A DNA stretch of 64,000 bases from Clostridia bacterium. GTDB lineage: Bacteria > Bacillota > Clostridia > RGIG8785. Positions 2,704-64,000 of the stretch are shown here, piece after piece. The translations under genes and the position numbers were made by a program. The stretch covers positions 5,056-69,055 of the forward strand of contig JAZOOX010000014.1 in the NCBI GenBank assembly GCA_045655245.1, written 5' to 3'. Below the pieces are notes generated by a model. The model was not told the DNA's origin. It saw only the letters and a list, made by a program, of their open reading frames with translations, and made no database searches. Position 1 is the first letter of the stretch, and every line of letters begins with the position of its first letter.

Positions 2704-2737
2704 GCAAACCACCCGAACAGGGTGGTTTCTTTTTTTA
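2704..2737 (+). terminator. rho-independent terminator after rpsT
   Basis: Hairpin AAACCACCCGAACAGGGTGGTTT followed by a T8 run. Confidence 0.85.
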
Positions 2738-2758
2738 GTGAGTAGTGGTTAGTGAAGG

Positions 2759-2787
2759 AAGAAACCTTGCCGGGGTTCTTTTTTTGT
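2759..2787 (+). terminator. second, weaker terminator hairpin
   Basis: GAAACCTTGCCGGGGTTC stem-loop followed by T8. Confidence 0.6.
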
Positions 2788-2871
2788 GGAGAGATTTCCC
2801 TTAAAGTGTGGAGAGGTGGCATTTTACGTTTGGTTCATAAAAATTAATCAAACGCAAAAAGGAGGGGGCGG

Positions 2872-2895
2872 TTTAGTTAACAAAAGTTAACCAAA
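2872..2895. repeat. 24-bp palindrome, copy 1 (TTTAGTTAAC-AAAA-GTTAACCAAA, one mismatch)
   Basis: Inverted repeat with 10-bp arms around an AAAA centre; three copies in the window. Confidence 0.8.
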
Positions 2896-2917
2896 CAGAA
2901 AAAGGCGTGAGACGCGA

Positions 2918-2941
2918 TTTGGTTAACAAAAGTTAACCAAA
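2918..2941. repeat. 24-bp perfect palindrome, copy 2 (TTTGGTTAAC-AAAA-GTTAACCAAA)
   Basis: Perfect 10-bp inverted arms; 46 bp from copy 1, about 60 bp upstream of the cysK -35. Confidence 0.85.
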
Positions 2942-2998
2942 TGAGCGGCGGCAAAAGGGGGTAATGAGCGGAGTTACAAACGGAATCCCTGCTTTCTA

Positions 2999-3027
2999 TT
3001 GACAAATGGTCAGGAAATACATATAAT
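2999..3027 (+). promoter_or_regulatory. sigma-A type promoter of cysK
   Basis: TTGACA (2999-3004), 17-bp spacer, TATAAT (3022-3027): perfect consensus. Confidence 0.8.
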
Positions 3028-6943: not shown

Positions 6944-6969
6944 AAAAGAGCCAGCCGGCTCTTTTTTTG
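6944..6969 (+). terminator. rho-independent terminator
   Basis: AAAAAGAGCCAGCCGGCTCTTTTTTT. Confidence 0.85.
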
Positions 6970-6998
6970 TTGACGACGGAAGAAGAATATGGTACAAT
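6970..6998 (+). promoter_or_regulatory. sigma-A type promoter for sRNA candidate 1
   Basis: TTGACG (6970-6975), 17-bp spacer, TACAAT (6993-6998). Confidence 0.65.
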
Positions 6999-7004
6999 AG
7001 TAAT

Positions 7005-7160
7005 TGCCAAACCAACTGAATAAAACGTAGTAAAAAGTAAGGAAAATAACAGTGAAAAAACGCTGGCTTGTTTCCTTAGTTTTGCTACGGTTAGGTTGGT
7101 TTGGCGATTGACCTGAGCCTGCGTTTTTCGGTGCGCGGCTTTGGTCGCGCACTTTTTTAT
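7005..7160 (+). ncRNA. candidate structured small RNA 1 (long imperfect hairpin plus intrinsic terminator)
   Basis: Nested helices GCCAAACCAAC/GTTGGTTTGGC, CGTAGTAAAA/TTTTGCTACG and TAAGGAAA/TTTCCTTA; ends in the terminator GTGCGCGGCTTTGGTCGCGCAC plus T6; no ORF. Confidence 0.45.
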
Positions 7161-7188
7161 TGACGAAAAAGTGCAACTGTGGTAAAAT
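7160..7188 (+). promoter_or_regulatory. sigma-A type promoter for sRNA candidate 2 / leader
   Basis: TTGACG (7160-7165), 17-bp spacer, TAAAAT (7183-7188). Confidence 0.65.
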
Positions 7189-7194
7189 ATTTTT

Positions 7195-7369
7195 GCGACA
7201 TGAATTTAATAGAGAGTTCGAGTTCAACCTATGGGAGACGTTTACCTTTTGGTAAAAACGTGTCCTCTACTTGAGCGTCCTCCTTAGGGTGAACTCTCTC
7301 TGAATTCGTGTCGCAACGATCAGAGTGACGCGTTTTTCGGTGCGTGGCTTTGGTCGCGCACTTTTTTAT
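7195..7369 (+). ncRNA. candidate structured small RNA 2 or cis-regulatory leader (multi-stem, same terminator as RNA 1)
   Basis: Closing helix GCGACATGAATT/AATTCGTGTCGC, inner helix AGAGAGTTC/GAACTCTCT, further hairpins; terminator GTGCGTGGCTTTGGTCGCGCAC plus T6 directly upstream of the RBS of a 45-aa ORF. Confidence 0.45.
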
Positions 7370-7385
7370 TGGGGGAGGGAGAAAA

Positions 7386-7523
7386 ATGGCAGACTACAAA
7401 AAGTTATACTATCAGTTATTCAACCGTATTACCGACCTGATTGAAGAATTGAAAAAATTTCAGATCGACGCAGAAGAGCAGTTTATGAGCGAAGAGGACG
7501 ACGAGGAAGAGGAAGCCGAATAG
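7386..7523 (+). CDS. hypothetical 45-aa acidic protein (below ORF-track cutoff)
   Basis: RBS GGGGGAGGGAG 5 nt before ATG 7386; MADYKKLYYQLFNRITDLIEELKKFQIDAEEQFMSEEDDEEEEAE; poly-acidic C-terminus. Confidence 0.35.
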   Translation: MADYKKLYYQLFNRITDLIEELKKFQIDAEEQFMSEEDDEEEEAE

Positions 7524-7606
7524 GGCCTCCTCTTTTAATTTGTGGTTGAATTGGGAAAAATGTTTTGGTAGAATAGAATCAAAAGACTTTATGGAGTTGA
7601 TGTAAC

Positions 7607-21209: not shown

Positions 21210-22322
21210 ATGGAGCAACGTCGTACACCGACTTCATTTGAATTTTTAAAAAAGAAAGCGGCGGATAAAACGCCGCTTTCTTTAAGTGTAGAGTTAACGG
21301 CGCGTTGCAACAACGATTGCCGACATTGTTATATCAATGTCCCCGCAGGGGATATCGCTGCCAAGGAAAAGGAACTCCCCCTTACCGAATGGGAAAGGAT
21401 TGCCGATATGGCACGAGATGCAGGAGTGCTCTGGTGCCTGATTTCAGGCGGGGAACCCATGCTTCGCAGTGATTTTTTTGACCTTTACATGATGTTTAAA
21501 CGTAAGGGGTTTTTGATCACTCTCTTTACCAATGCAACCTTAATGACCGAAGAGGCAGTGGCGTTTTTCAAGCGGTATCCGCCCTATAAAATTGAGGTTT
21601 CGGTCTACGGCGTTACCGACGATACTTATTTTGCGGTCACAGGAAAACGTGGGTACTGTCAGCGGATGAAAGAGGGCATTGAACGGTTGCGTGCTGCGGG
21701 GCTATACACCTGCTTGAAAACCCCTTTGATTCGTTCGAATCAGCAGGAGGCAGAAGCAATTTACCAATACTGTCGGGAACGGTCTTCTGAACCATTTCGT
21801 TTTGATACCATTCTACACAACCGGGTGGACTTTGACGCCGACCGCAATCGCTCGATTGCTGAAGAACGGTTAACACATCAACAGGTACTGGACTTGGAAG
21901 GCTTACGTCCTGAACGGTTGGAAATTTTAAAAAATGCGTGTCTGAACTCGCAACGTCAACTGCGTATCGACCCGGTCACGGGAGAACAACCGTTGTTTCG
22001 TTGTCGTGCGGGGGCGGAAAGCATCACGGTTGATCCTTATGGCAGAATGCGCCTTTGTGCTATGTTATCGGGTCCTGAATTCTTATATGATTTGAAGAAG
22101 GGCACCATTGATGAGGCCATGGGACCATTTCGGGATAGGATTTTGACAATGCCCAACAAAAACCCCGCCTTTGAACGGTGCCGCGGCTGTCGGGCGTTGC
22201 CCCTTTGCAACTGGTGTCCCGGCCGTGCCCTTTTGGAGATGGGAACAGTGGATGCCTTTATGCCAGAACTTTGCCGATTGGCAGAGAAACGCTTTGATGC
22301 TTTGACCAAGGAGGATGTGTAA
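21210..22322 (+). CDS. radical SAM/SPASM-domain peptide-modifying enzyme
   Basis: CNNDCRHC (C-x3-C-x2-C) rSAM cluster motif; C-terminal SPASM motif CRGCRALPLCNWC (C-x2-C-x5-C-x2-C). Confidence 0.85.
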   Translation: MEQRRTPTSFEFLKKKAADKTPLSLSVELTARCNNDCRHCYINVPAGDIAAKEKELPLTEWERIADMARDAGVLWCLISGGEPMLRSDFFDLYMMFKRKGFLITLFTNATLMTEEAVAFFKRYPPYKIEVSVYGVTDDTYFAVTGKRGYCQRMKEGIERLRAAGLYTCLKTPLIRSNQQEAEAIYQYCRERSSEPFRFDTILHNRVDFDADRNRSIAEERLTHQQVLDLEGLRPERLEILKNACLNSQRQLRIDPVTGEQPLFRCRAGAESITVDPYGRMRLCAMLSGPEFLYDLKKGTIDEAMGPFRDRILTMPNKNPAFERCRGCRALPLCNWCPGRALLEMGTVDAFMPELCRLAEKRFDALTKEDV

Positions 22323-23197
22323 TGCGGGACGAAAAATGTTACGGGATGTATGCCGCGGCGGGAATTACCTTTCGGCTGTTTTCCGAACGCCCTGTTACAA
22401 CTTCCACTTTTGCACCCAAAATGGACAAGTTTGCCGTTGCCGAGACGGGCGCCGAGGTGGTGGACGTCCATCACCATTTTACCATGCCCCAACGGCGGTT
22501 CGATACATCACCTGTGTACAACACCTCCCCCTGGACCATTTACCAGGAAGGGGAGACCTGGCACTATGTTTGGACCAATAAGCTGACCCGGACGGTGGAA
22601 TACTACGCCGTTTTTACCGAGGAATACCATCAGGTACACATCTACCACTACAACACCGATCTTTGGGATCGGGGGAATCACGTGGGACTGTTGATGCGCA
22701 CCAATGATCAGGTGCTGTTTTTGCCCCTGCTTTGGCAGCGGGGTGGATTTGTGCTTCATTCCTCGGCGGTGGTTCAGGGGGATCGTGCCATTGTTTTGGT
22801 GGGGCATTCGGGCGCGGGGAAGAGTACTGCTACCAATCACTTTGGAAAAGATGCAGTGGTCATCAGCGAAGACCGCAATATTATTCTACCCGAGAATGAC
22901 GCGTTTTACGTTTACGGTTCCTGGATTCATTATAACAACGATCGTATCACCAATGACCGTAAGCGAGTAGATGCGTTGTACTTCATCAAAAAGGCCAACG
23001 AAACCCGTTTAGAACCTTTAAAACCCTTGACCGCAATACACGAAACGCTGTCCCATGTCGCTCGTGGATACGCCAATGCCAAGGGCTGGAATGCCACCGT
23101 TGATGCAGTGGAAAAATTTATTCAAAAAAATTTATGTTTTTACTTGCATTTTGAAAAAGATGGTGGTATAATGAATTTACTAAATCGTCAAAATTGA
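22322..23197 (+). CDS. HPr-kinase C-terminal-domain-like P-loop protein (putative peptide kinase)
   Basis: Walker A GHSGAGKST as in HprK; ATGA start/stop overlap with the rSAM gene. Confidence 0.65.
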   Translation: MRDEKCYGMYAAAGITFRLFSERPVTTSTFAPKMDKFAVAETGAEVVDVHHHFTMPQRRFDTSPVYNTSPWTIYQEGETWHYVWTNKLTRTVEYYAVFTEEYHQVHIYHYNTDLWDRGNHVGLLMRTNDQVLFLPLLWQRGGFVLHSSAVVQGDRAIVLVGHSGAGKSTATNHFGKDAVVISEDRNIILPENDAFYVYGSWIHYNNDRITNDRKRVDALYFIKKANETRLEPLKPLTAIHETLSHVARGYANAKGWNATVDAVEKFIQKNLCFYLHFEKDGGIMNLLNRQN

Positions 23198-23233
23198 TTT
23201 AATAATGTAAAGTTTCATTGGGAGGTATATGAG

Positions 23234-23395
23234 AATGAAAAAGGTATGGGAAACTCCTGAAGTTGTAGCAGTAGTACATGGTAGCCCTGAAGAAGCTGTT
23301 TTGATGACTTGCTATGATGATTTGACTTGCGAATTCGATGCAGCCGAAAGCACTGGGGCTGAATTTCTGACTGTTGATCTGGCTGCTATCAGCTG
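23234..23395 (+). CDS. putative RiPP precursor peptide (53 aa; below ORF-track cutoff)
   Basis: RBS GGGAGG (23219-23224) 9 nt before ATG 23234; MKKVWETPEVVAVVHGSPEEAVLMTCYDDLTCEFDAAESTGAEFLTVDLAAIS; W-x-x-P leader motif, acidic two-Cys core, C-terminal Ser; terminator follows. Confidence 0.5.
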
Positions 23396-23430
23396 ATTTT
23401 TACATTTTTCACAACCAAAAATGACAATTA

Positions 23431-26065: not shown

Positions 26066-26130
26066 TTTGACTTTGTTTGACTTTTGCGATTTTGTGACAG
26101 AATGGTATACTAAAGTCAAAGAAAGTCAAA
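26066..26130 (+). promoter_or_regulatory. ctsR promoter with two CtsR operator repeats
   Basis: TTTGACTTTGTTTGACT (26066-26082, inverted orientation) and AGTCAAAGAAAGTCAAA (26114-26130) match the CtsR heptad direct-repeat consensus; extended -10 TGgTATACT at 26103-26111. Confidence 0.8.
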
Positions 26131-26149
26131 AACAAAAAGAGGTGGTCTG

Positions 26150-35948: not shown

Positions 35949-35966
35949 AATAGTGATTAGTTAAGG

Positions 35967-35996
35967 AAAGGACTTGGATTTCTCCAAGTCCTTTTT
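35967..35996. repeat. hairpin repeat copy A (AAAGGACTTGG-N-CCAAGTCCTTTTT), inverted orientation
   Basis: 11-bp stem; four copies in the window (also 38011, 40846, 55563); copy A has its loop flipped relative to the others. Confidence 0.85.
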
Positions 35997-36002
35997 GTTA
36001 TA

Positions 36003-36040
36003 AAAAAGAAGACCAATAATGACCAAAAGGATTGTGGTAT
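36003..36040 (+). promoter_or_regulatory. conserved 38-bp box (AAAAAGAnGACCAATAATGACCAAAAGnAnTGTGGTA), copy 1, promoter-like
   Basis: Nearly identical to 55603-55637 upstream of the phage small terminase; contains -35/-10-like hexamers. Confidence 0.5.
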
Positions 36041-38010: not shown

Positions 38011-38038
38011 AAAAGGACTTGGAGAAATCCAAGTCCTT
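38011..38038. repeat. hairpin repeat copy C
   Basis: AAAAGGACTTGGAGAAATCCAAGTCCTT; inverted relative to copy A, so the 36.0-38.0 kb cassette is bracketed by inverted copies. Confidence 0.85.
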
Positions 38039-40794: not shown

Positions 40795-40825
40795 AAAAAG
40801 CACCCGAAAGGGTGCTTTTTTTGAA
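40795..40825 (+). terminator. rho-independent terminator after tsf
   Basis: AAAAAGCACCCGAAAGGGTGCTTTTTTT. Confidence 0.9.
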
Positions 40826-40845
40826 GTAATAATGAAGAGGTAAGA

Positions 40846-40875
40846 AAAGGACTTGGGAAACCAAGTCCTTTTTCA
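40846..40875. repeat. hairpin repeat copy D
   Basis: AAAAGGACTTGGGAAACCAAGTCCTTTTTC. Confidence 0.8.
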
Positions 40876-40876
40876 T

Positions 40877-40900
40877 TTGGTTAACAAAAGTTAACCAAAA
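40877..40900. repeat. 24-bp perfect palindrome, copy 3 (TTTGGTTAAC-AAAA-GTTAACCAAA)
   Basis: Identical to copy 2 at 2918-2941. Confidence 0.85.
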
Positions 40901-41165
40901 CGGGGCAGGAGAGCGGAGGGGTGGTTGGAAATTCTTAACTGATTGATAATTGTTGGGCGATTTTTCTTAGCCAAAAGAGACGTCGTTTTTAGGGATTTTC
41001 TCCCACCGTGGAAAAAGGCTGAAGGAGCTGTCGCGACAAGCGGGATTTTTAAAAATTTTTGTAGAACATTTTGTGTTTATTTCTGTTCTGTTACAAACAT
41101 ACCACAAAATGTTGTATATGTTTCATTTATGTTTCAATCAGGTTAAAATTTTTTTAAAAAAAGGG

Positions 41166-41240
41166 TTGAAATCTCAAAAAAAATACTTTATAATATAGTC
41201 AAGTGGGGTGAAGTGTCACCAAATGTCATGAAGTGGCAAA
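41166..41240 (+). promoter_or_regulatory. mraZ/dcw promoter followed by four 10-bp-phased MraZ-type direct repeats
   Basis: TTGAAA (41166-41171), 17-bp spacer, TATAAT (41189-41194); then AGTGGGGTGA / AGTGTCACCA / AATGTCATGA / AGTGGCAAAA (41202-41240). Confidence 0.75.
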
Positions 41241-55562: not shown

Positions 55563-55592
55563 AAAGGACTTGGAGAAATCCAAGTCCTTTTT
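55563..55592. repeat. hairpin repeat copy B
   Basis: AAAAGGACTTGGAGAAATCCAAGTCCTTTTTT at the host/phage-module junction. Confidence 0.85.
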
Positions 55593-55602
55593 TATTTTTC
55601 CA

Positions 55603-55637
55603 AAAAGATGACCAATAATGACCAAAAGAAGTGTGGT
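55603..55637 (+). promoter_or_regulatory. conserved box, copy 2 (promoter-like; -10 TATAAT at 55632-55637)
   Basis: GATGACCAATAATGACCAAAAGAAGTGTGGTAGTATAAT; near-identical to 36003-36040. Confidence 0.5.
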
Positions 55638-55664
55638 AGTATAATTTCGAAAGGAGGAATACGG

Positions 55665-55847
55665 ATGGCAAAACGAAAACAGGCAAGTAGTGCCGTTGCC
55701 TTTTGGGAGCGATTGTTAAACGACCCGGAGGCAGATATCAAGGACCGCTTAAAGGCGTCGGAGTTCCTGGCAAAAGCCCACAAGACTTTTGCCGAAGAGC
55801 CGCTGACCGACCGTGAGCTGAACGTGACGATCCGTGTGGTTGAATAA
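55665..55847 (+). CDS. phage terminase small-subunit-like protein
   Basis: 60 aa; RBS AAGGAGG before ATG 55665; TAATG overlap with the large-terminase start; position and size fit a small terminase, sequence alone is weak. Confidence 0.4.
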   Translation: MAKRKQASSAVAFWERLLNDPEADIKDRLKASEFLAKAHKTFAEEPLTDRELNVTIRVVE

Positions 55848-57214
55848 TGGATTTAAACCTTACCGTCACCCAAAAGCAAAAGTCCTTTCTGGATGCCACT
55901 GCTGACGAAGTGTTATACGGCGGGGCGGCAGGGGGCGGGAAGAGTTACGGACAGGTAGTGGATGCCTTGGTTTATGCCCTGCGCTACAAGGGCATCCGTC
56001 AGCTGGTGCTTCGCCGCACCTTTCCCGAACTGAAGCGGAGTTTGATTTTAACCTCTCTTGCCCTTTTTCCAAAAGGAGTCTGTCAGTACCAAAGCGCAAA
56101 CCATCGGTTTGTCTTTCAAAACGGCTCGGTCATCGAGTTTGGTTATTGTGACACGGAAGGGGATGTGACCCAGTACCAATCGGCGGAGTACGATGTTTTA
56201 CGATTTGACGAGCTGACCCACTTCACCGAGTTTCAGTACCGTTACTTAATCTCCCGTATTCGTGGCGTCAACGGCCATCCCAAACAGGTCAAGGCCACTA
56301 CCAATCCGGGGGGCATCGGGCACAGTTGGGTGAAAGAACGGTTTATCGGTCACGACGGGGAGTGGACGGCAGAGGATGGACGCACGCGAGTATTTATCCC
56401 TGCCACCGTGCGGGACAACTGTTTTTTAATGTCGTCAGACAGTGGCTACCTCGCCCGTCTGGAACAGTTGCCCGAGCAGGAAAAACGTGCCTTGCTTTAC
56501 GGGGACTGGGACTTGTACGAGGGACAAGCCTTTGGGGAGTTTCGCAACAACCCCGACGGGTATCTCTCCCGCCGCGGCAGTCACGTCATCACCCCTTTCG
56601 AGATTCCGGAACACTGGCGGCGATTCCGCAGTTTTGACTTCGGCTATGCCAAGCCTTTTGCGGTTCAATGGTGGGCGGTAGATGAGGACGGACGTGCTTA
56701 TCTTTACCGACAACTGTACGGGTCCACGGGGAAACCCAACGAGGGGAGGCGGTGGACGGTCAGTCAAATCGGTCAGGCCATTGCCCGTATCGAAGCGGAA
56801 GAAGAACGGGGACGAAATATCACGGGGATTGCCGATCCCAGTATCTGGGACACCTCCCGTGGGGAGTCGGTTGCCGAGATGCTGGAGCGGGAGGGGGTTT
56901 ACTTCGACCCCGGGGACAACGCCCGTCTGGCAGGGAAGATGCAGCTGCACTACCGACTTCAGTTTGATGAAGGGGGCTTGCCGATGCTTTATGTCTTTTC
57001 TACCTGTCGGGACTTTATCCGCACATTGCCCGGGCTGATTTATGACCGACACCGCTCCGAGGACATCGACACCAACGGCGAAGACCACGACTATGATGCC
57101 TGCCGCTACTTTTTAATGGCAAATCCCATTGGAGCAAAACGTCCACAGCCCCGCGGGCATTTCGAGACCGACCCCCTCGACCGAAAAGTATGGGTCATTG
57201 ATTTACCAAAGTAA
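55847..57214 (+). CDS. phage terminase large subunit (PBSX/XtmB-like)
   Basis: Walker A ..YGGAAGGGKSY.., about 450-aa compact terminase with C-terminal nuclease region. Confidence 0.9.
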   Translation: MDLNLTVTQKQKSFLDATADEVLYGGAAGGGKSYGQVVDALVYALRYKGIRQLVLRRTFPELKRSLILTSLALFPKGVCQYQSANHRFVFQNGSVIEFGYCDTEGDVTQYQSAEYDVLRFDELTHFTEFQYRYLISRIRGVNGHPKQVKATTNPGGIGHSWVKERFIGHDGEWTAEDGRTRVFIPATVRDNCFLMSSDSGYLARLEQLPEQEKRALLYGDWDLYEGQAFGEFRNNPDGYLSRRGSHVITPFEIPEHWRRFRSFDFGYAKPFAVQWWAVDEDGRAYLYRQLYGSTGKPNEGRRWTVSQIGQAIARIEAEEERGRNITGIADPSIWDTSRGESVAEMLEREGVYFDPGDNARLAGKMQLHYRLQFDEGGLPMLYVFSTCRDFIRTLPGLIYDRHRSEDIDTNGEDHDYDACRYFLMANPIGAKRPQPRGHFETDPLDRKVWVIDLPK

Positions 57215-57233
57215 TGAAGATAGGAGAAGAAAA

Positions 57234-58757
57234 ATGGAAGAATTTTTCAGAGAAGTGCAACGGGCGTTTAATACTTACGTTGCCGAAAAAGCCGCCATTG
57301 ACAGTGAACTGGTAGATGGTGAGGAATGGTTTAATGATCGTTGTTTTGACGGCGGTCGGGAAGCGGATGGGAGTGTTCGCGGTGCAGGCGGATATGTGTA
57401 TAACATTGTTGCCAACAAGCATGCCGATGCCATGGACCAGATGCCCGCGCCCCTCTTTTTGCCCCGTGAGCAAGAGGACACGATTGCGGCTGAGGAAGCC
57501 TCGCAGGTGTTACCGGTAGTACTGGCACGATGCGGGTTTGAACGCACTTATTCCGACGGCTGGTGGAACAAGCTAAAGCATGGCACTGCCGCCTATGGAG
57601 TTTTTTGGGACAATGCTAAATCGGATATCTGCATTCGTGAGGTGGACCTGCTTAACATCTTTTGGGAACCTGCAGTAGAGGACATCCAGGACAGCCGATT
57701 TTTGTTTATCACTCGTGTGCTGAGCCGTCAGCAGATGGGGGAACTGTACCCCCAACTGTCGCCTGCCGACTATGCCGCTCCCATCAACCTGCGGAGCTAC
57801 GAGCATCGCTTTGACCCCGAACGGGTTTTGGTGGTGGATTGCTACTACAAAGACCGCGGAGTACATCTTTTAAAGTTCTGCGGGGACAAAATCCTGTACC
57901 ACTCTAAAGAGGACAAGCGGTTAAATCGCCGCGGCCTCTATCATCACGGACAGTATCCCATCGTCTTTGACCGCCTGATTGCCAAGCGGGGGACACCTCA
58001 GGGTGCAGGGTTTATCTCTCTTTCCCGCGGGGCGCAGGAGTACATTGATCGCCTGGACAGTTTGCTGCTTCAGAACGCCTTGGTGTCGGGACGGCAACGC
58101 TGGTTTATCAAAGACAACGGCGGCGTGAACGAACAGGAGTTTTTAAACTTTGAAAATGATTTGATTCATGTTGCGGGAAGTCTGGAAGAAACGCACATCC
58201 GTCCCTTCCAGGCAACGGCACTGCCCTCCTATGTGCAGTATTTGCGGGAACACAAGATTTCCGAATTGAAGGAGATTTGCGGCAACCGCGACTTCCAGCA
58301 GGGCGCTACCGCCCAGGGGGTTACTGCTTATTCTGCCATTGCCGCCTTACAGGAAGCGGGGAACAAGCTCAGTCGGGATATGATTGCCGAGAGCTATGAT
58401 GCGTTCCGACAGATCATGCGGCTCTGCCTTTCTTTGGTGGTCCAGTTTTATGACGAGGCGCGGGTTTTCCGTGTAACGGGGGACCAATTCCTAAGCTTTT
58501 CTGCCAAGTCACTGGTACGGGACGGAAAGGAAGTGGAACTGGACATTGAAGTACAGGCACAGAAGCAGAACCCCGTTACCCGCGAAGGACAAAACCAATT
58601 GCTGATGGAACTCTATCGGCTGGGGGTATTCCGCCCCGAGAATGCAACGGCCGCTAAAGTACTGGTCTCCCAGATGGACTTTAACGGGCGTGAGGGTCTG
58701 CTTTCGGCGCTGATTCGTGCCGAGCAGGGCTACCGCAACGAGGAGGCACAGGCATGA
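57234..58757 (+). CDS. phage portal protein
   Basis: About 507 aa directly after the terminase; RBS AGGAGAAG before ATG 57234; size and position fit a portal. Confidence 0.75.
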   Translation: MEEFFREVQRAFNTYVAEKAAIDSELVDGEEWFNDRCFDGGREADGSVRGAGGYVYNIVANKHADAMDQMPAPLFLPREQEDTIAAEEASQVLPVVLARCGFERTYSDGWWNKLKHGTAAYGVFWDNAKSDICIREVDLLNIFWEPAVEDIQDSRFLFITRVLSRQQMGELYPQLSPADYAAPINLRSYEHRFDPERVLVVDCYYKDRGVHLLKFCGDKILYHSKEDKRLNRRGLYHHGQYPIVFDRLIAKRGTPQGAGFISLSRGAQEYIDRLDSLLLQNALVSGRQRWFIKDNGGVNEQEFLNFENDLIHVAGSLEETHIRPFQATALPSYVQYLREHKISELKEICGNRDFQQGATAQGVTAYSAIAALQEAGNKLSRDMIAESYDAFRQIMRLCLSLVVQFYDEARVFRVTGDQFLSFSAKSLVRDGKEVELDIEVQAQKQNPVTREGQNQLLMELYRLGVFRPENATAAKVLVSQMDFNGREGLLSALIRAEQGYRNEEAQA

Positions 58758-59335
58758 GTGAACTTTCTTTGGGCGCAAGAACTGCGGAACCCGCCCACCC
58801 GCAAGACGGTGCAAATACCGAAAGTCCGTCCGCCGTCCGGACCCCGATTCTGGCGTTTTATTCCCAGGACGAAGTCGACCGTTTTATGGGAAAACGTTTG
58901 GGAGAGAGTCGGAAAATCAAAGAGGCGTACGAGCAACTTCAGCCGATGCTGGTACACCTGCGCAAAGAGTATGGCTGTGATAACGACCGGGATTTGGTCG
59001 GGCAGGTGTTAGGTCAGGCGGAAGCAGGCGGCTTACGCTATGGAATCGGCGCCACCACCCCTGCCGACTGGGCGGCGTTGTTACAGGAGCACCCCGATAT
59101 TGACCCTGTTGAGGTCACCGACGACCCGAAAGTCCGTCGGGCAATGCGAGCGGGGTTTAGCCTGTCCGAAGCTGTACGGATTGCCAAACTGTTAAACGAC
59201 GGCGCTGCCCGCCCTGACGAAAACGGGGCGGCACGGCATCGCAGCAGGATTCGGCTGGATATTGAGCGGATGACCGACGCCCAGTTAAACGAAGTGGCAC
59301 GTCGGGTCAGACGCGGAGAACTTGTTCAATTTTAG
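58754..59335 (+). CDS. hypothetical phage protein (scaffold/head-morphogenesis position)
   Basis: ATGA overlap with the portal stop; lies between portal and capsid. Confidence 0.35.
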   Translation: MSELSLGARTAEPAHPQDGANTESPSAVRTPILAFYSQDEVDRFMGKRLGESRKIKEAYEQLQPMLVHLRKEYGCDNDRDLVGQVLGQAEAGGLRYGIGATTPADWAALLQEHPDIDPVEVTDDPKVRRAMRAGFSLSEAVRIAKLLNDGAARPDENGAARHRSRIRLDIERMTDAQLNEVARRVRRGELVQF

Positions 59336-59348
59336 GAGGAATTAAGTT

Positions 59349-60506
59349 ATGAGTAATGTAAACGAAAACATTCAAAGCACCGCCACCTTAAGTGCGGAAA
59401 ACAAAACCTATTACGACAAACGATTGATTCAGTTTGCCAAGCCCAATCTGGTCCACGACCAGTTCGGTCAAAAGCGACCTATCCCTAAAAATGGCGGCAA
59501 AACCATTGAGTTCCGCAGTTTCTCGTCCCTGCCCAAGGCGTTGGTACCCCTGACCGAGGGCGTTACCCCCGATGGCGAAAGTCTGACCGTGGAGCAGATT
59601 TCTGCATCGGTCAACCAGTACGGCTCGTACGTTACCACCACCGATATGCTGAATATGACCGCCATTGACAACATTGTGGTTGAGACTTCCGAGGTCTTAG
59701 GTGACCAGGCGGGAAGAACCTTGGATACTGTTGTTCGCGAATACTTAAACGCCGGTTCTTCGGTTCAGTATGCCGACGGCGAAAAGGATTCCCGTTCCCA
59801 GCTGACTGCCGCTGATACCCTGTCGGTGAAGGCGGTCCAGCGTGCCGTTGCAACCTTAAAAAAGAACAATGCCAAACCTTTTGCCGACGGGTCTTTTGTT
59901 GCCATTGTCCATCCCGCCGTTGCTCATGACCTGATGCGCGACCCCGAATGGAAGGACGTTGCCAATTACAACCCTGCGGAATGGTATGCGGGTGAAATTG
60001 GCCGCATCGCAGGTGTTCGCTTTGTTGAAACCACCGAAGCCAAAATTTTCGAAGCGGAGGATCTGGCAGGATTTGATGACTTGACGATTACGGCAGTAGA
60101 TGCCCAAAATCGCAAGGTTACCATCGCTGAAGAAGTGGATGCATCGGTCATCGGCCGTGAAATCGTCATTAACGGTCTGGACTACACGATCGCAGCTGTT
60201 GACGGTTTTACCCTGACCTTGTCCGAGGTCCTGCCCGCATCGGTTGCCGCTAACGATAAGGTTTACCCCGCCGGCGGCACCTCGGACGGCAGTCCTGTTT
60301 ATTCTACTTTGATTTTGGGTCGTGATGCTTATGGTGTTACCGAGATTACCGGCGGCGGTCTGGAAATGATTGTAAAGCCTTTGGGCTCCGGCGGTACGGG
60401 CGACCCCTTAAACCAACGTTCCACCATGGGCTGGAAAGCAACCAAGGTGGCTAAAATTCTGACCGAAGAGTATATGATTCGCGTGGAGACTACTGCAGCA
60501 TTATAA
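59349..60506 (+). CDS. phage major capsid protein
   Basis: 385 aa, RBS AGGAGG; capsid-like composition and position after the scaffold. Confidence 0.65.
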   Translation: MSNVNENIQSTATLSAENKTYYDKRLIQFAKPNLVHDQFGQKRPIPKNGGKTIEFRSFSSLPKALVPLTEGVTPDGESLTVEQISASVNQYGSYVTTTDMLNMTAIDNIVVETSEVLGDQAGRTLDTVVREYLNAGSSVQYADGEKDSRSQLTAADTLSVKAVQRAVATLKKNNAKPFADGSFVAIVHPAVAHDLMRDPEWKDVANYNPAEWYAGEIGRIAGVRFVETTEAKIFEAEDLAGFDDLTITAVDAQNRKVTIAEEVDASVIGREIVINGLDYTIAAVDGFTLTLSEVLPASVAANDKVYPAGGTSDGSPVYSTLILGRDAYGVTEITGGGLEMIVKPLGSGGTGDPLNQRSTMGWKATKVAKILTEEYMIRVETTAAL

Positions 60507-60554
60507 GAAAGTGGGGGCGGGATACCGCCCCCTGGCACAAAAGGAGGAATTACA

Positions 60555-60884
60555 ATGGCAGAAAAGAAAATTACTGTCAGTTTGACCGCCGAGGAACTGA
60601 TGGCGTTAAAGCAACTGGTCCATAACCCTGAAACTCGCGCGGTTTCGCCCGTTAAGGAACCGGCTGATGCGGTTCGTGCTTACTATGACGAGCCGGTGGA
60701 GATCTATCTGCATCCTTACGGCACCCGCGAATACCTGACCGTAGTGGTCAACGGCGTGACCTATCAGGTGCGCCGCGGGGTCAGTGTCACTGTTCCCCGT
60801 CGTGTAGCACGGGTTATTCGTCAGGCAGAGGAAAATTATCGTCGTGCGCTGGTCTTTGATCGCCGCATGATCGCGCAAGGGTAG
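60555..60884 (+). CDS. hypothetical phage protein (109 aa)
   Basis: RBS AAAGGAGG; head-completion position. Confidence 0.4.
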   Translation: MAEKKITVSLTAEELMALKQLVHNPETRAVSPVKEPADAVRAYYDEPVEIYLHPYGTREYLTVVVNGVTYQVRRGVSVTVPRRVARVIRQAEENYRRALVFDRRMIAQG

Positions 60885-60893
60885 GTGATAAAA

Positions 60894-61934
60894 ATGCAAA
60901 ATTTTTGGTGGAATCGCAAGTTCTATCATGGAAGACCCGAGCCGGACAGTTACAGACTGTCTCGCTTGGAAGAAACCAGCTCGACAACCGCCGAAACCCT
61001 GTCTGCTCTGTCAAAGGCGCAGACTGCGACAGACGCTTTAAACGATGCCCAGGGCAAACTTCTGGGGGAACACACTGCCCTGCTATCCCATCTGACTGAC
61101 ATCGCCGCCTCCACGCAAGAGGATGTGGAGCAGGTTGTGGCAGAATGTGACAGCATCAGTAACGAACTTACTGCCCTGGAGCAGAACGACAATGTGCTGT
61201 CTGCTCGTATCGATGGCATCGAAGAAGCCTGCGCTGATACTTCGGCAGAGCAAGCCACACGGTTGAACCAACTGGAGTCTGCTACTGCTGAATTCCCGAA
61301 AAAACTTACTGTACTGGAAAACAAACTCACGTCTACAAGAGGTGAGGGGATGGGGTACCTCCCCTTTCAAGGTTACGGTTGCACCTGCAATCTATTGGGT
61401 TCGTATCCCGCCGGAGGAGTTACGTTGTTCAGCGAATCATACGATGCAGCCAACCTATATCTGTCACCAATAAATGAGACACAGCTGATAATCCCCCCAG
61501 GGAGTGGGGTCCTTTTCGGATCGATGGATGGTATCAAATTTTCTGATGGAGAATTTGAAGTGATTAACCTTTCCCAGATGCCGATGCTGAAGAAAATAGG
61601 TTTTTGTGACTTTGTGTTTCACGGTCTTGTCATGCCCTCAAAACCTATCTTGTACGAGGTGGTGTTAGAGAGAACTAACGGCGTTACAGTAGATTTACAA
61701 AATCAAACCCAGCTGTTCAACCTGACCATGGTAAATTGTCATGCAAATGTGCGCTTACCCGATACTCTTCCGAACCTGGAATATGTGGTATTGGATAGTA
61801 ATAAAGCGCAGGATGAAGATTTTTTGAAAAAATATCTCTTCGACCGTAGTCAAACTAGCCCCGGACGGGTGTCACTGTCGGGCGCAACGCCTCCCGACTG
61901 GCTGGCAGAACGGAACTGGACGGTGATAGGGTGA
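60894..61934 (+). CDS. hypothetical phage protein: N-terminal coiled coil + C-terminal Leu-rich repeat-like region
   Basis: Heptad-rich N-terminal half (..ALSKAQTATDALNDAQGKLLGEHTALLSHL..), C-terminal LRR-like segment; ATG 60894 after RBS AGGGTAGGTG. Confidence 0.45.
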   Translation: MQNFWWNRKFYHGRPEPDSYRLSRLEETSSTTAETLSALSKAQTATDALNDAQGKLLGEHTALLSHLTDIAASTQEDVEQVVAECDSISNELTALEQNDNVLSARIDGIEEACADTSAEQATRLNQLESATAEFPKKLTVLENKLTSTRGEGMGYLPFQGYGCTCNLLGSYPAGGVTLFSESYDAANLYLSPINETQLIIPPGSGVLFGSMDGIKFSDGEFEVINLSQMPMLKKIGFCDFVFHGLVMPSKPILYEVVLERTNGVTVDLQNQTQLFNLTMVNCHANVRLPDTLPNLEYVVLDSNKAQDEDFLKKYLFDRSQTSPGRVSLSGATPPDWLAERNWTVIG

Positions 61935-62662
61935 ACGTTTTTGCTTTAAAGATTATCCATGATGCCGATGCCCGCATTCCTAACGCCCTCCCTACGGCAA
62001 AGAAACTGGACTGGCTCAACCGCCTGGAAGCCCGTATTCGTTTGGAAATCAAGCGCATCTATGACGAGTACACCCTTACGGTTACCGAGGATAAACCCTA
62101 CCTGCTCCCCGTGTCGGAAGAGCAAATAGAATGGGTGTTTTATAACGGCAACCCCATCCCGAAAATCGACCTTCGTTCTGCCGAAGGGTTGCGGGCGGGG
62201 GAGTACCGATTCGTTTGCCGTAGCCTGCCCGAGCCTCTGACCGATCGAGTGGTGACCGATGAAAACGCCACTTTTTCGGCGGACAGCATCACCTTCTCCG
62301 AGTACCATCCTTTTGTGAAAGGCGATTTTATTGGCATTTCGGAAACGCCAGACAACAATGTTACCGCCACGGTAACCGAAATTGATGGTGTGACCGTCAA
62401 AACGGATTACACCGCCTTTGTTGCAGGGGAAATGCCCGCTACCGTATGCAGTATCAACGACCGTCCCATGGAGATCCCCACTCAGCACCCTTGCTTTGGG
62501 ATATACGAGGAGTATCTGTGTATGGAACTCGCCCGTCACCTGGCGGATACCGAGCGTTTCCGTCTGGCAGAGAGCGCCTTTGCTGCCTTATGGGAGGAGT
62601 ACGCCCGACTCTACCGCCAGACTGCCCCCCAAACCCCCGGGGCAAAAGTAAGGGGGATCTGA
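61931..62662 (+). CDS. hypothetical phage protein (243 aa)
   Basis: GTG start overlapping the upstream stop (GTGA). Confidence 0.4.
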   Translation: MNVFALKIIHDADARIPNALPTAKKLDWLNRLEARIRLEIKRIYDEYTLTVTEDKPYLLPVSEEQIEWVFYNGNPIPKIDLRSAEGLRAGEYRFVCRSLPEPLTDRVVTDENATFSADSITFSEYHPFVKGDFIGISETPDNNVTATVTEIDGVTVKTDYTAFVAGEMPATVCSINDRPMEIPTQHPCFGIYEEYLCMELARHLADTERFRLAESAFAALWEEYARLYRQTAPQTPGAKVRGI

Positions 62663-64000
62663 TATGGCAGAAACCTTACTGGACATCAAAACCTTCGGCG
62701 GGCTGAACTTTAGTCCCAATGCCGAAGCGGGGGAGTGTGCCATTGCCCTCAACCTGGACGATGCCAATGCCCCCGCCTTGCGTACCGCATACGGATTTAC
62801 CGATGAGACGGTAACCGAAACGGGTACTTTTCAGGGTCATCTCATCGAACAGGGCAAAACGGTGATGTCGGTCTTTGACGATACGTTGTATATGGGTCAA
62901 ATGCAATTTCCGTTAGAGCCTTTGGGTGTGCCTCGCAGATTTCTGCGTATCACGCCCAAGGACGTTTTAATCTTCCCCGATTGCTACCGCTACTCCTATT
63001 CCCACGTCGAGTGCGCCCCCTTGGACGAACGCTTTACCTCCGAAGGGACGGCTACTCACGATGACGGCAAAGTGCGGGTGAAATTGACCACCCGCCCGCT
63101 CAGCTCCATCCGTGGTCGGGTCTACCTGGATGATGCGGGGTATACCTATTACGACCCCGAAACCGCCCCGGGTGAATCTCTTTTGTACTTCGAGGTGGAG
63201 AGTTACGACCACGACGGAAGCGGTTGTGCGTTAGTGTTAAAACCTGTCACCAACGGAACCGGCATGTATTCTTATTCGTCGGATAAAGTCAAAGACCGAC
63301 TCACCCTCCGTCAGGTCTATCCCCGCATGGACCATGTAATGATCTTCCGCAACCGGCTCTGGTGCGTGGGCGGAATGGTCCTTACCGCATCAAAACTGGG
63401 TGACTACTTAAACTTCACCGATTTTTCGGGTCTTTCCACCGATAGCTTTTCGATGGAAGTGGAAGAACCCCTAAACGCAATCTCCCACTTTGGAGAACGG
63501 GTGGTCTTTATGAGCAAAACCCACCTCTACGAACTCTACGGCGACCGTCCTTCCAACTATCAGGTCTCAGCTCCGAAATCGGGCGGTTGTACCTACCCCG
63601 ACTCTGTATGTACTGCAGGGGGTTACCTCATCTATGCCGACGATCGCAACCTCTATCGTTATGGTGGCGGGGACCCCCAGGTTACCACCGAACGGCTGGA
63701 TTTCCCCCAATGGACTTCGGTGTTCGGCGTTTCGGACGGCGAATCCTGTTATCTTGGCATCGACGGCCACCTCTATCGCTACCGTCCCAAACGCAATACC
63801 TTTTATGCCCTCGACCGCACCGCCACCCTGGGCATCACCCAACAAAGCACCTGTTTCTTCTATAATAATAAGGGATACTTCTGTCCCAACCGCGAACGGA
63901 CGGGTGAGGTGCACTTCCGTTCGGGTTGGCTCTGCCTGGACAAGCGGGGTCGCGTCGCACCGAAAGAGATTCTGCTCCGTATTGACGGTGCGGTAGACGA
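62663..64000 (+). CDS. hypothetical phage structural protein (partial, 3' end outside window)
   Basis: Open frame from ATG 62663 (MAETLLDIKTFGGLNFSPN..) to the window end (over 445 codons) with no stop; absent from the ORF track, presumably because it is incomplete. Confidence 0.5.

Follow-up and report, generated by a model that had tools for sequence, protein, structure and literature searches.

A 24-bp inverted repeat that occurs upstream of cysK and again upstream of the dcw cluster in an uncultured spore-forming Clostridia genome appears, at odds that we put at about even (roughly 0.5), to be a lineage-specific, non-coding hairpin repeat of a REP/MITE-like kind rather than an operator of cysK or of the dcw genes. 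The REP-like reading is drawn from two loci within 64 kb, and membership of the REP/RAYT systems proper is not claimed. The window, by which we mean the whole stretch of 64,000 nucleotides that was analysed, carries rpsK-rpsD-rpoA-rplQ-rpsT, cysK and sfsA; it also holds spoIIAA-spoIIAB-sigF, ctsR-mcsA-mcsB-clpC and a gene for an SLH-domain protein, and further on rpsB-tsf, mraZ-rsmH followed by the dcw cluster, and a prophage-like region from about 55.8 kb. Because GC skew is positive across the window, the + strand was taken as the leading strand.

The exact 24-mer, TTTGGTTAACAAAAGTTAACCAAA (TTTGGTTAAC-AAAA-GTTAACCAAA), is present at 2918-2941 and at 40876-40899, and a copy with one mismatch lies at 2872-2895 (Table 1). 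An earlier reading made from the letters of the window (the sequence-only reading) had reported these three copies, the last of them one base too high, at 40877-40900. The repeat is not a chance occurrence, since matches with up to 3 mismatches averaged 0.00 in 100 dinucleotide-preserving shuffles. The same reading described a perfect palindrome and, upstream of cysK, a tandem pair, and each description holds in part. The 10-bp inverted arms are real, but they surround a non-symmetric AAAA spacer that is found on the + strand in every copy, and the reverse complement of the 24-mer scores 4 mismatches; because the copies share one orientation, the 24-mer counts as an inverted repeat rather than as a true palindrome. 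Likewise, the tandem arrangement stands but the pair does not: a degenerate further unit, u0, brings the tandem array next to cysK to three units, which stand at periods of 43 and 46 bp and carry 4, 1, and 0 mismatches (u0, u1, and u2) going towards cysK. Similarity among the array units runs for approximately 10 nt 3′ of the arms (C-R-N-AAAAAGG), and purine-rich, Shine-Dalgarno-like tracts lie 3′ of each unit. The RNA hairpin of u2 has a folding energy of -10.2 kcal/mol (z = -4.5), and that of u0 is weak (-1.4 kcal/mol), its innermost pair having gone from C-G to T-A with both sides changed.

Between the two loci 25 nt are identical (40875-40899 and 2917-2941; ATTTGGTTAACAAAAGTTAACCAAA). The flanks of the cysK-side and tsf-mraZ-side copies are unrelated, purine richness excepted, leaving approximately 25 bp alone in common. 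At 86 bp from s3, an incomplete copy in inverted orientation forms a TIR-like right end to a unit of approximately 100 bp (40876-40975); allowing up to 2 mismatches, the window has 11 matches where 1.6 would be expected. In a contig of the same species (L030) it reads TTTGGTTAAGAAAA, and there the inverted ends of the ~100-bp unit agree at 14 of 15 positions. None of the four units falls within a gene, nor does the partial copy. Outside the repeats, single TTTGGTTAAC half-sites are no more frequent in the window than chance predicts, and the idea of an uptake sequence was rejected on that ground. A restriction site was also considered and rejected, GTTAAC not being avoided in the window (17 observed vs. 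12 expected).

Table 1. Repeat units, neighboring promoters and hairpin, and lineage-specific blocks in the window.
Feature	Coordinates	Strand	Remarks
u0, degenerate unit TTTGGTTCATAAAAATTAATCAAA, 4 mismatches	2829-2852	+	First in tandem array
u1, TTTAGTTAACAAAAGTTAACCAAA, begins TTTAGTTAAC, 1 mismatch	2872-2895	+	
u2, exact copy; arms reach 11 bp at 2917-2942	2918-2941	+	
s3, solitary exact copy, 3 nt past second hairpin downstream of tsf	40876-40899	+	
Partial inverted copy (left arm and spacer), TTTGGCTAAGAAAA	40962-40975	-	
cysK promoter TTGACA-17-TATAAT, 12/12 consensus positions	2999-3027	+	Conserved in relatives without the repeat
mraZ/dcw promoter TTGAAA-17-TATAAT with tandem GTGGG-type MraZ-box-like repeats	41166-41238	+	Conserved in relatives without the repeat
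Terminator hairpin, recurrent GGACTTGG...CCAAGTCC family	40845-40872	+	Ends 3 nt upstream of s3
Lineage-specific block, rpsT terminator to cysK promoter, holds the array	2735-2994		blastn breakpoints
tsf terminator-to-mraZ block, no blastn homology to sister species	40822-41039		Core insertion ~40873-40985 (113 bp)

Terminators immediately precede every copy, and the closest -35 box is 57-266 bp away. On the cysK side, the array is preceded by the rpsT terminator (2706-2728) and by a second, weaker terminator-like hairpin, and its units stand 57-170 bp upstream of the -35 box that starts at 2999; the sequence-only reading had given the distances to this consensus promoter correctly. It had placed the distant copy between the tsf terminator and mraZ, where s3 follows a hairpin by 3 nt and lies 266 bp before the -35 box of the mraZ promoter proper (41166-41194). 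No credible small ORF was found in block 2735-2994 or block 40822-41039. Rfam returned nothing at the gathering threshold over the whole window, and permissive E-values over both regions gave sub-threshold noise. Neither block had a plasmid or phage match.

Comparison with strains and relatives indicates that the repeat is young and that the adjacent promoters are conserved without it. Another strain of the source species (L030, 99.3% identical), reached by exact look-up of the window MraZ, retains s3 and the surrounding 113-bp segment; exact look-ups of the window RpsT, CysK, Tsf, and RplQ found no contig. L030 is a Logan contig that ends 6 nt upstream of the 24-mer, its first 30 nt (k-1, k = 31) being ‘ttttca’ plus the 24-mer, and this end may reflect an assembly-graph break from strain variation or a repeat, or may be a coincidence. 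In three sister-species contigs (L089, L090, and L092), which are 92% identical through rpsB-tsf and have MraZ proteins at 74%, and in the more distant L093, the mraZ promoter region is conserved and the 24-mer is absent. The hairpin after tsf passes straight into ‘tttttagggatttt’ in L089, whereas the window has approximately 113 bp (40873-40985) interposed, starting with the 24-mer repeat. Because the outgroup L093 also lacks the block, the block is an insertion in this lineage. On the cysK side, block 2735-2994 takes the place of a 600-bp segment in L095 (94.6% identical over rpoA-rplQ-rpsT, CysK 96%) and L094 (CysK 98%), where a 169-aa gene lies between rpsT and the conserved cysK promoter; the product of this gene has a sub-threshold AAA_33 match only (23.2 bits vs. 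a cut-off of 27). In L096 and L097 a terminator stands immediately before the cysK promoter with no 24-mer, and in L098 and L099 (Tsf 99% identical) other DNA follows tsf and the 24-mer is again absent. No copy was found in any of the fetched relatives when up to 6 mismatches were allowed. Around the sites, 2735-2994 and 40822-41039 are the only stretches without blastn homology to sister species, the flanking ribosomal genes being 92-95% identical and the cysK and mraZ promoters retained. Given its absence from sister species at both loci, the 24-mer is therefore a recent acquisition of the source species. The same spacers are hypervariable even among sister-species strains (L092 vs. L089). 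Other short hairpin modules, too, recur in this lineage at non-orthologous places and in either orientation, which likewise speaks for a repeat family.

These comparisons argue against the proposal of the sequence-only reading that the tandem copies form an activator-type operator of cysK and the distant copy a dcw site. The repeat is missing from the spacers of L089, L090, L092, L093, L094, L095, L096, and L097, even though the cysK and mraZ promoters are conserved in sister species, and the window copies sit in lineage-specific filler after terminators, neither next to nor over promoters (57-170 bp and 266 bp from the -35 boxes). Moreover, the identity between the two loci extends over approximately 25 bp, taking in an asymmetric spacer and an orientation on which a symmetric dimer would impose no constraint, which points to copying of a small unit rather than to convergent selection of operators. 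The sequence-only reading had left a choice between a regulon marker and a repeat family; the second fits better, and a regulatory role at cysK and dcw is not supported.

The observations show a unit of approximately 25 bp (ATTTGGTTAAC-AAAA-GTTAACCAAA) that was copied to two or more terminator-to-promoter spacers, which are separated by 38 kb, with its orientation on the leading strand unchanged. On the cysK side, a 43-46-bp unit consisting of the 24-mer and an AAAAAGG-type tail was then duplicated in tandem, with the units decaying progressively away from cysK (0, 1, and 4 mismatches). On the tsf-mraZ side, the copy is part of the 113-bp insertion, which has an inverted partial copy at its far end, giving the ~100-bp unit with inverted ends. 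Spread presumably occurred by copy-and-paste of the hairpin unit, through an enzyme encoded elsewhere and acting in trans (e.g., a hairpin-recognising IS200/RAYT-type transposase), or through recombination or templated repair. The unit would land where the DNA tolerates insertions, and any influence on adjacent genes would probably be incidental. On this account it would be a mistake to label the 24-mer a regulatory site or to build a regulon on it, a caution that follows from the conservation of the adjacent promoters without the repeat. It would represent one further family of short extragenic palindromic repeats, in uncultured Clostridia, for which few descriptions of such elements exist, and the rpsT-cysK and tsf-mraZ spacers would be places of frequent small-module turnover, of possible use in strain typing. 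The repeat is real but ordinary, and its chief value is as a warning against annotation as a regulon marker.

REP sequences and REPINs are repetitive extragenic palindromes mobilised by RAYT transposases (PMC3116915, PMC3337134). The window repeat resembles them in its hairpin units of ~25 nt, its strictly extragenic position just 3′ of genes or terminators, its occurrence both singly and in clusters, and its variable presence among close relatives; at tsf-mraZ, the partial inverted second copy ~86 bp away gives a REPIN-like size. It differs in that the cysK array consists of direct tandem 43-46-bp units and not of the inverted doublets usual in REPINs, and in that the stem is perfect and AT-rich. 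Additionally, no transposase of any kind, RAYT included, was found among the 30 window ORFs scanned against Pfam, and no conserved flanking tetranucleotide was identified. To our knowledge, REP/RAYT systems have been described mainly in Proteobacteria and not in Clostridia. A MITE would share the ~100-bp unit with inverted ends and its absence from the orthologous site of the sister species, but no target-site duplication is visible, no full-length element is common to both loci or present in a second copy, and there is no known parent insertion sequence. A strict MITE was rejected, since TIR-like ends occur at one locus, without duplication, and 25 bp are shared between the loci. The array also recalls a CRISPR mini-array in having partly palindromic repeats of 24-28 nt at regular spacing, one terminal repeat being degenerate. 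However, the intervening segments are 19-22 nt long (vs. at least about 26) and resemble one another, so that the true unit is the 43-46-bp tandem repeat; given these short, similar spacers, no cas gene among the scanned ORFs, and no match to a CRISPR direct-repeat family in Rfam, a CRISPR array was rejected.

The alternative that survives best, unlikely in our view but a serious contender, is that the 24-mers are sites for a dimeric TetR-like helix-turn-helix regulator encoded elsewhere in the genome. They would then be recently acquired high-affinity operators, decoys, or roadblocks, with the array binding several dimers upstream of cysK and the solitary s3 standing behind the tsf terminators. 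The sequence-only reading had noted that the shape suits a dimeric DNA-binding protein, and this is fair: inverted arms of 10-11 bp at a fixed 4-bp spacing have a geometry that suits a dimer, and the same arms are found in an operator-like position beside an orthologous TetR gene in six Bacillota genomes. A scan of 185,579 species-representative genomes for TTGGTTAAC-N4-GTTAACCAA gave 26 single-copy loci in unrelated taxa. At six of the 26, the site directly follows a TTGACA-N17 -10 box and stands ahead of the RBS and start codon of an operon whose products are a ceramidase-like protein, a TetR, and an Aas-like acyltransferase/AMP-ligase; the six come from Sporomusa (L006, L009, and L017), Acidaminococcales (L024), and Bacillota MAGs (L016 and L022). 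Their TetR proteins are orthologous (58-74% identity, TetR_N domain), and their spacers vary (GATC, GATT, GAGC, AAAA) around fixed arms, an invariance that is informative only for the outer positions, since the search pattern imposed 9 bp of each arm (18 bases). L024 agrees with the window over 25 of 25 nt, the AAAA spacer included. Judging from sequence and gene order, (A)ATTTGGTTAAC-N4-GTTAACCAAAT(T) is likely the TetR operator of a lipid-recycling operon in Sporomusa, Acidaminococcales, and other Bacillota (for example, at 1251-1272 in L009 and 7746-7767 in L024, between the -10 box and the RBS). Taken with the full match in L024, this putative operator makes it plausible that a TetR-type dimer recognises the 24-mer, and the identity of the arms counts against reading the window copies purely as a repeat.

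Several features of the window sites nevertheless weigh against a TetR regulon. A TetR of this kind was found neither among the genes of the window nor in the relatives that were fetched. No promoter abuts any copy, and the sites are not kept in sister species whereas the promoters are. The sites of a regulon normally differ, whereas these are identical, including the spacer and orientation, and the periods of 43 and 46 bp are not whole helical turns. Furthermore, agreement with the six loci beyond the 18 forced bases has little significance, amounting to two flank positions that are independent and to an AAAA spacer at one of the six. The candidate operator of the ceramidase-like/TetR/Aas-like operon and the window sites thus share the arms, (A)TTTGGTTAAC...GTTAACCAAA(T), and the 4-bp spacer, but the former is single, abuts a -10 box beside the TetR gene, and is conserved across genera, while the latter are multiple, identical, far from promoters, without a TetR nearby, and absent from sister species. 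As operators of that type, with a promoter immediately upstream and an adjacent TetR, the window copies were rejected, both features being absent from the window. The window does encode CtsR, SigF, and a protein with an HTH_26 domain, but no link from any of these to the 24-mer could be made. Were a TetR-like protein nevertheless involved, the 24-mer would be a ready-made bait for it.

Searches of wider collections gave little else. No exact copy from the source species was found in the species-representative or metagenome collections, the source genome not being among those scanned. A metagenome scan with GGTTAACAAAAGTTAACC gave 58 loci, mainly unrelated terminator hairpins; a scan of a viral collection gave 3 chance-like matches, and a literature search by sequence returned primers only. 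Tandem GGGTTAAC-AAAA-GTTAACCC hairpins on freshwater contigs L040, L074, and L079 were judged a different motif family, matched via the search pattern alone. These contigs carry many GGGTTAAC half-sites within one intergenic region, with tandem CGCGGGTTAAC-AAAA-GTTAACCCGC hairpins at a 41-bp period (L040 380-520, L074 880-1030, and L079 2760-2900), judged to be a separate multi-site operator or structured RNA. Also among the matches, TTGGTTAACCCCGGTTAACCAA has conserved flanks in five Chitinophagaceae/Bacteroidota genomes (L008, L010, L013, L023, and L025) and is probably another conserved operator.

A broader view, which we regard as rather doubtful, is that the 24-mer is one of a set of mobile hairpin cassettes that actively remodel terminator-to-promoter spacers, an undescribed REP-like system of Firmicutes, possibly with its own hairpin-recognising enzyme, whose hosts would be uncultured spore-forming Clostridia/Oscillospirales. 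The other cassettes would be the GGACTTGG...CCAAGTCC and GTCAGCC...GGCTGAC terminator hairpins and stop-codon-rich (TAGTGAN)n-plus-hairpin modules. A AAAAGGACTTGG-loop-CCAAGTCCTTTT terminator hairpin occurs four times in the window (35970-35992, 38015-38037, 40849-40869, and 55566-55588) and recurs in relatives (L093 at 2275; L098 at 4577, 7274, and 7849; L099 at 850, 3447, and 4022), at non-orthologous sites and with variable loops; because the loops ATTTCT and AGAAAT are reverse complements, it is present in both orientations. GCACCC...GGGTGC and GTCAGCC...GGCTGAC hairpins recur likewise, and it seems that this lineage re-uses terminator sequences or that these are mobile. In an Oscillospiraceae genome (L028), heptad repeats, a terminator hairpin, and then TTGGTTAAC-CAAA-GTTAACCAA follow one another in the same order as in the window, which hints that the repeat family may be wider but diverged.

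Two modules were noted besides these hairpins. Stop-codon-rich heptads (TAGTGAT, TAGTGGT, or TAGTGAA, ending ..TTAAGG) stand directly before a terminator hairpin at 2737-2785 and 35949-35995, are tandemly repeated in L092 (1-190), and form a 34-nt inverted pair in L028 (7144-7247); we know of no described family of such heptad-plus-hairpin modules. A 48-nt module at 35992-36039 and 55591-55638 (83% identical) follows a GGACTTGG hairpin in each case and holds GACCAATAATGACCAAAAG immediately before a TGTGGTA(T/G)..-type -10 region. A DUF4417 island follows one copy and prophage packaging genes follow the other, and the module is possibly a promoter or operator of mobile origin that the two share.

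It is very unlikely, we think, that the repeat functions at the RNA level, as a hairpin that stabilises the 3′ or 5′ end of read-through or antisense transcripts, for instance, or marks them for processing. The stability of the u2 hairpin, the Shine-Dalgarno-like tracts behind each unit, and the two-sided change of the innermost pair in u0 are compatible with such a role, but little transcription is to be expected because one or two terminators precede each site and the next promoter comes only after it. Additionally, the mismatches of u0 and u1 favor neither strand, the repeat has no Rfam match, and it is not conserved in relatives. An intrinsic terminator in particular was rejected, since no U-tract (T-run in the DNA) follows the hairpin on either strand and a terminator scan called no copy.

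It is less likely still that the repeats are recombinase sites or partition or chromosome-organising sites (res-like, hix-like, or parS-like). Three dimer-type sites in 113 bp resemble a res layout, the asymmetric center gives each site a polarity, and all copies are directly oriented on the leading strand. Equal 10+4+10 subsites are, however, unlike known res architecture, and recombination between direct copies would excise 38 kb including sigF, clpC, rpsB, and tsf. Moreover, neither a recombinase nor a ParB gene was among the 30 window ORFs scanned against Pfam, and the repeat was found neither in sister species nor in phage and plasmid collections.

Other features of the window were noted in passing. 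In 6944-7606, two 42-nt terminators are 98% identical (7121-7162 and 7330-7371), each preceded by a promoter-like site and 130-150 nt of non-coding sequence; the region, which has no Rfam match, could be a pair of small RNA genes, and a 45-aa acidic ORF (7386-7523) follows the second terminator. A radical-SAM enzyme is encoded at 21210-22322 and a protein without a Pfam match at 22322-23197, followed by a 53-aa Cys-containing ORF (23235-23396; MKKVWETPEVV...), and 21210-23396 may hold a RiPP precursor and its maturase. The region 55800-64000 was judged prophage-like from its raw translation alone and contains a terminase-like ORF starting MDLNLTVTQKQKSFLDATADEVLYGGAAGGGKSYGQ; GC skew falls to about zero over the last 4 kb of the window. 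Finally, GACTTTGTTTGACTTT and AAAGTCAAAGAAAGTCAAA repeats at 26069-26132, upstream of ctsR-mcsA-mcsB-clpC, resemble the CtsR box and are presumably CtsR operators.
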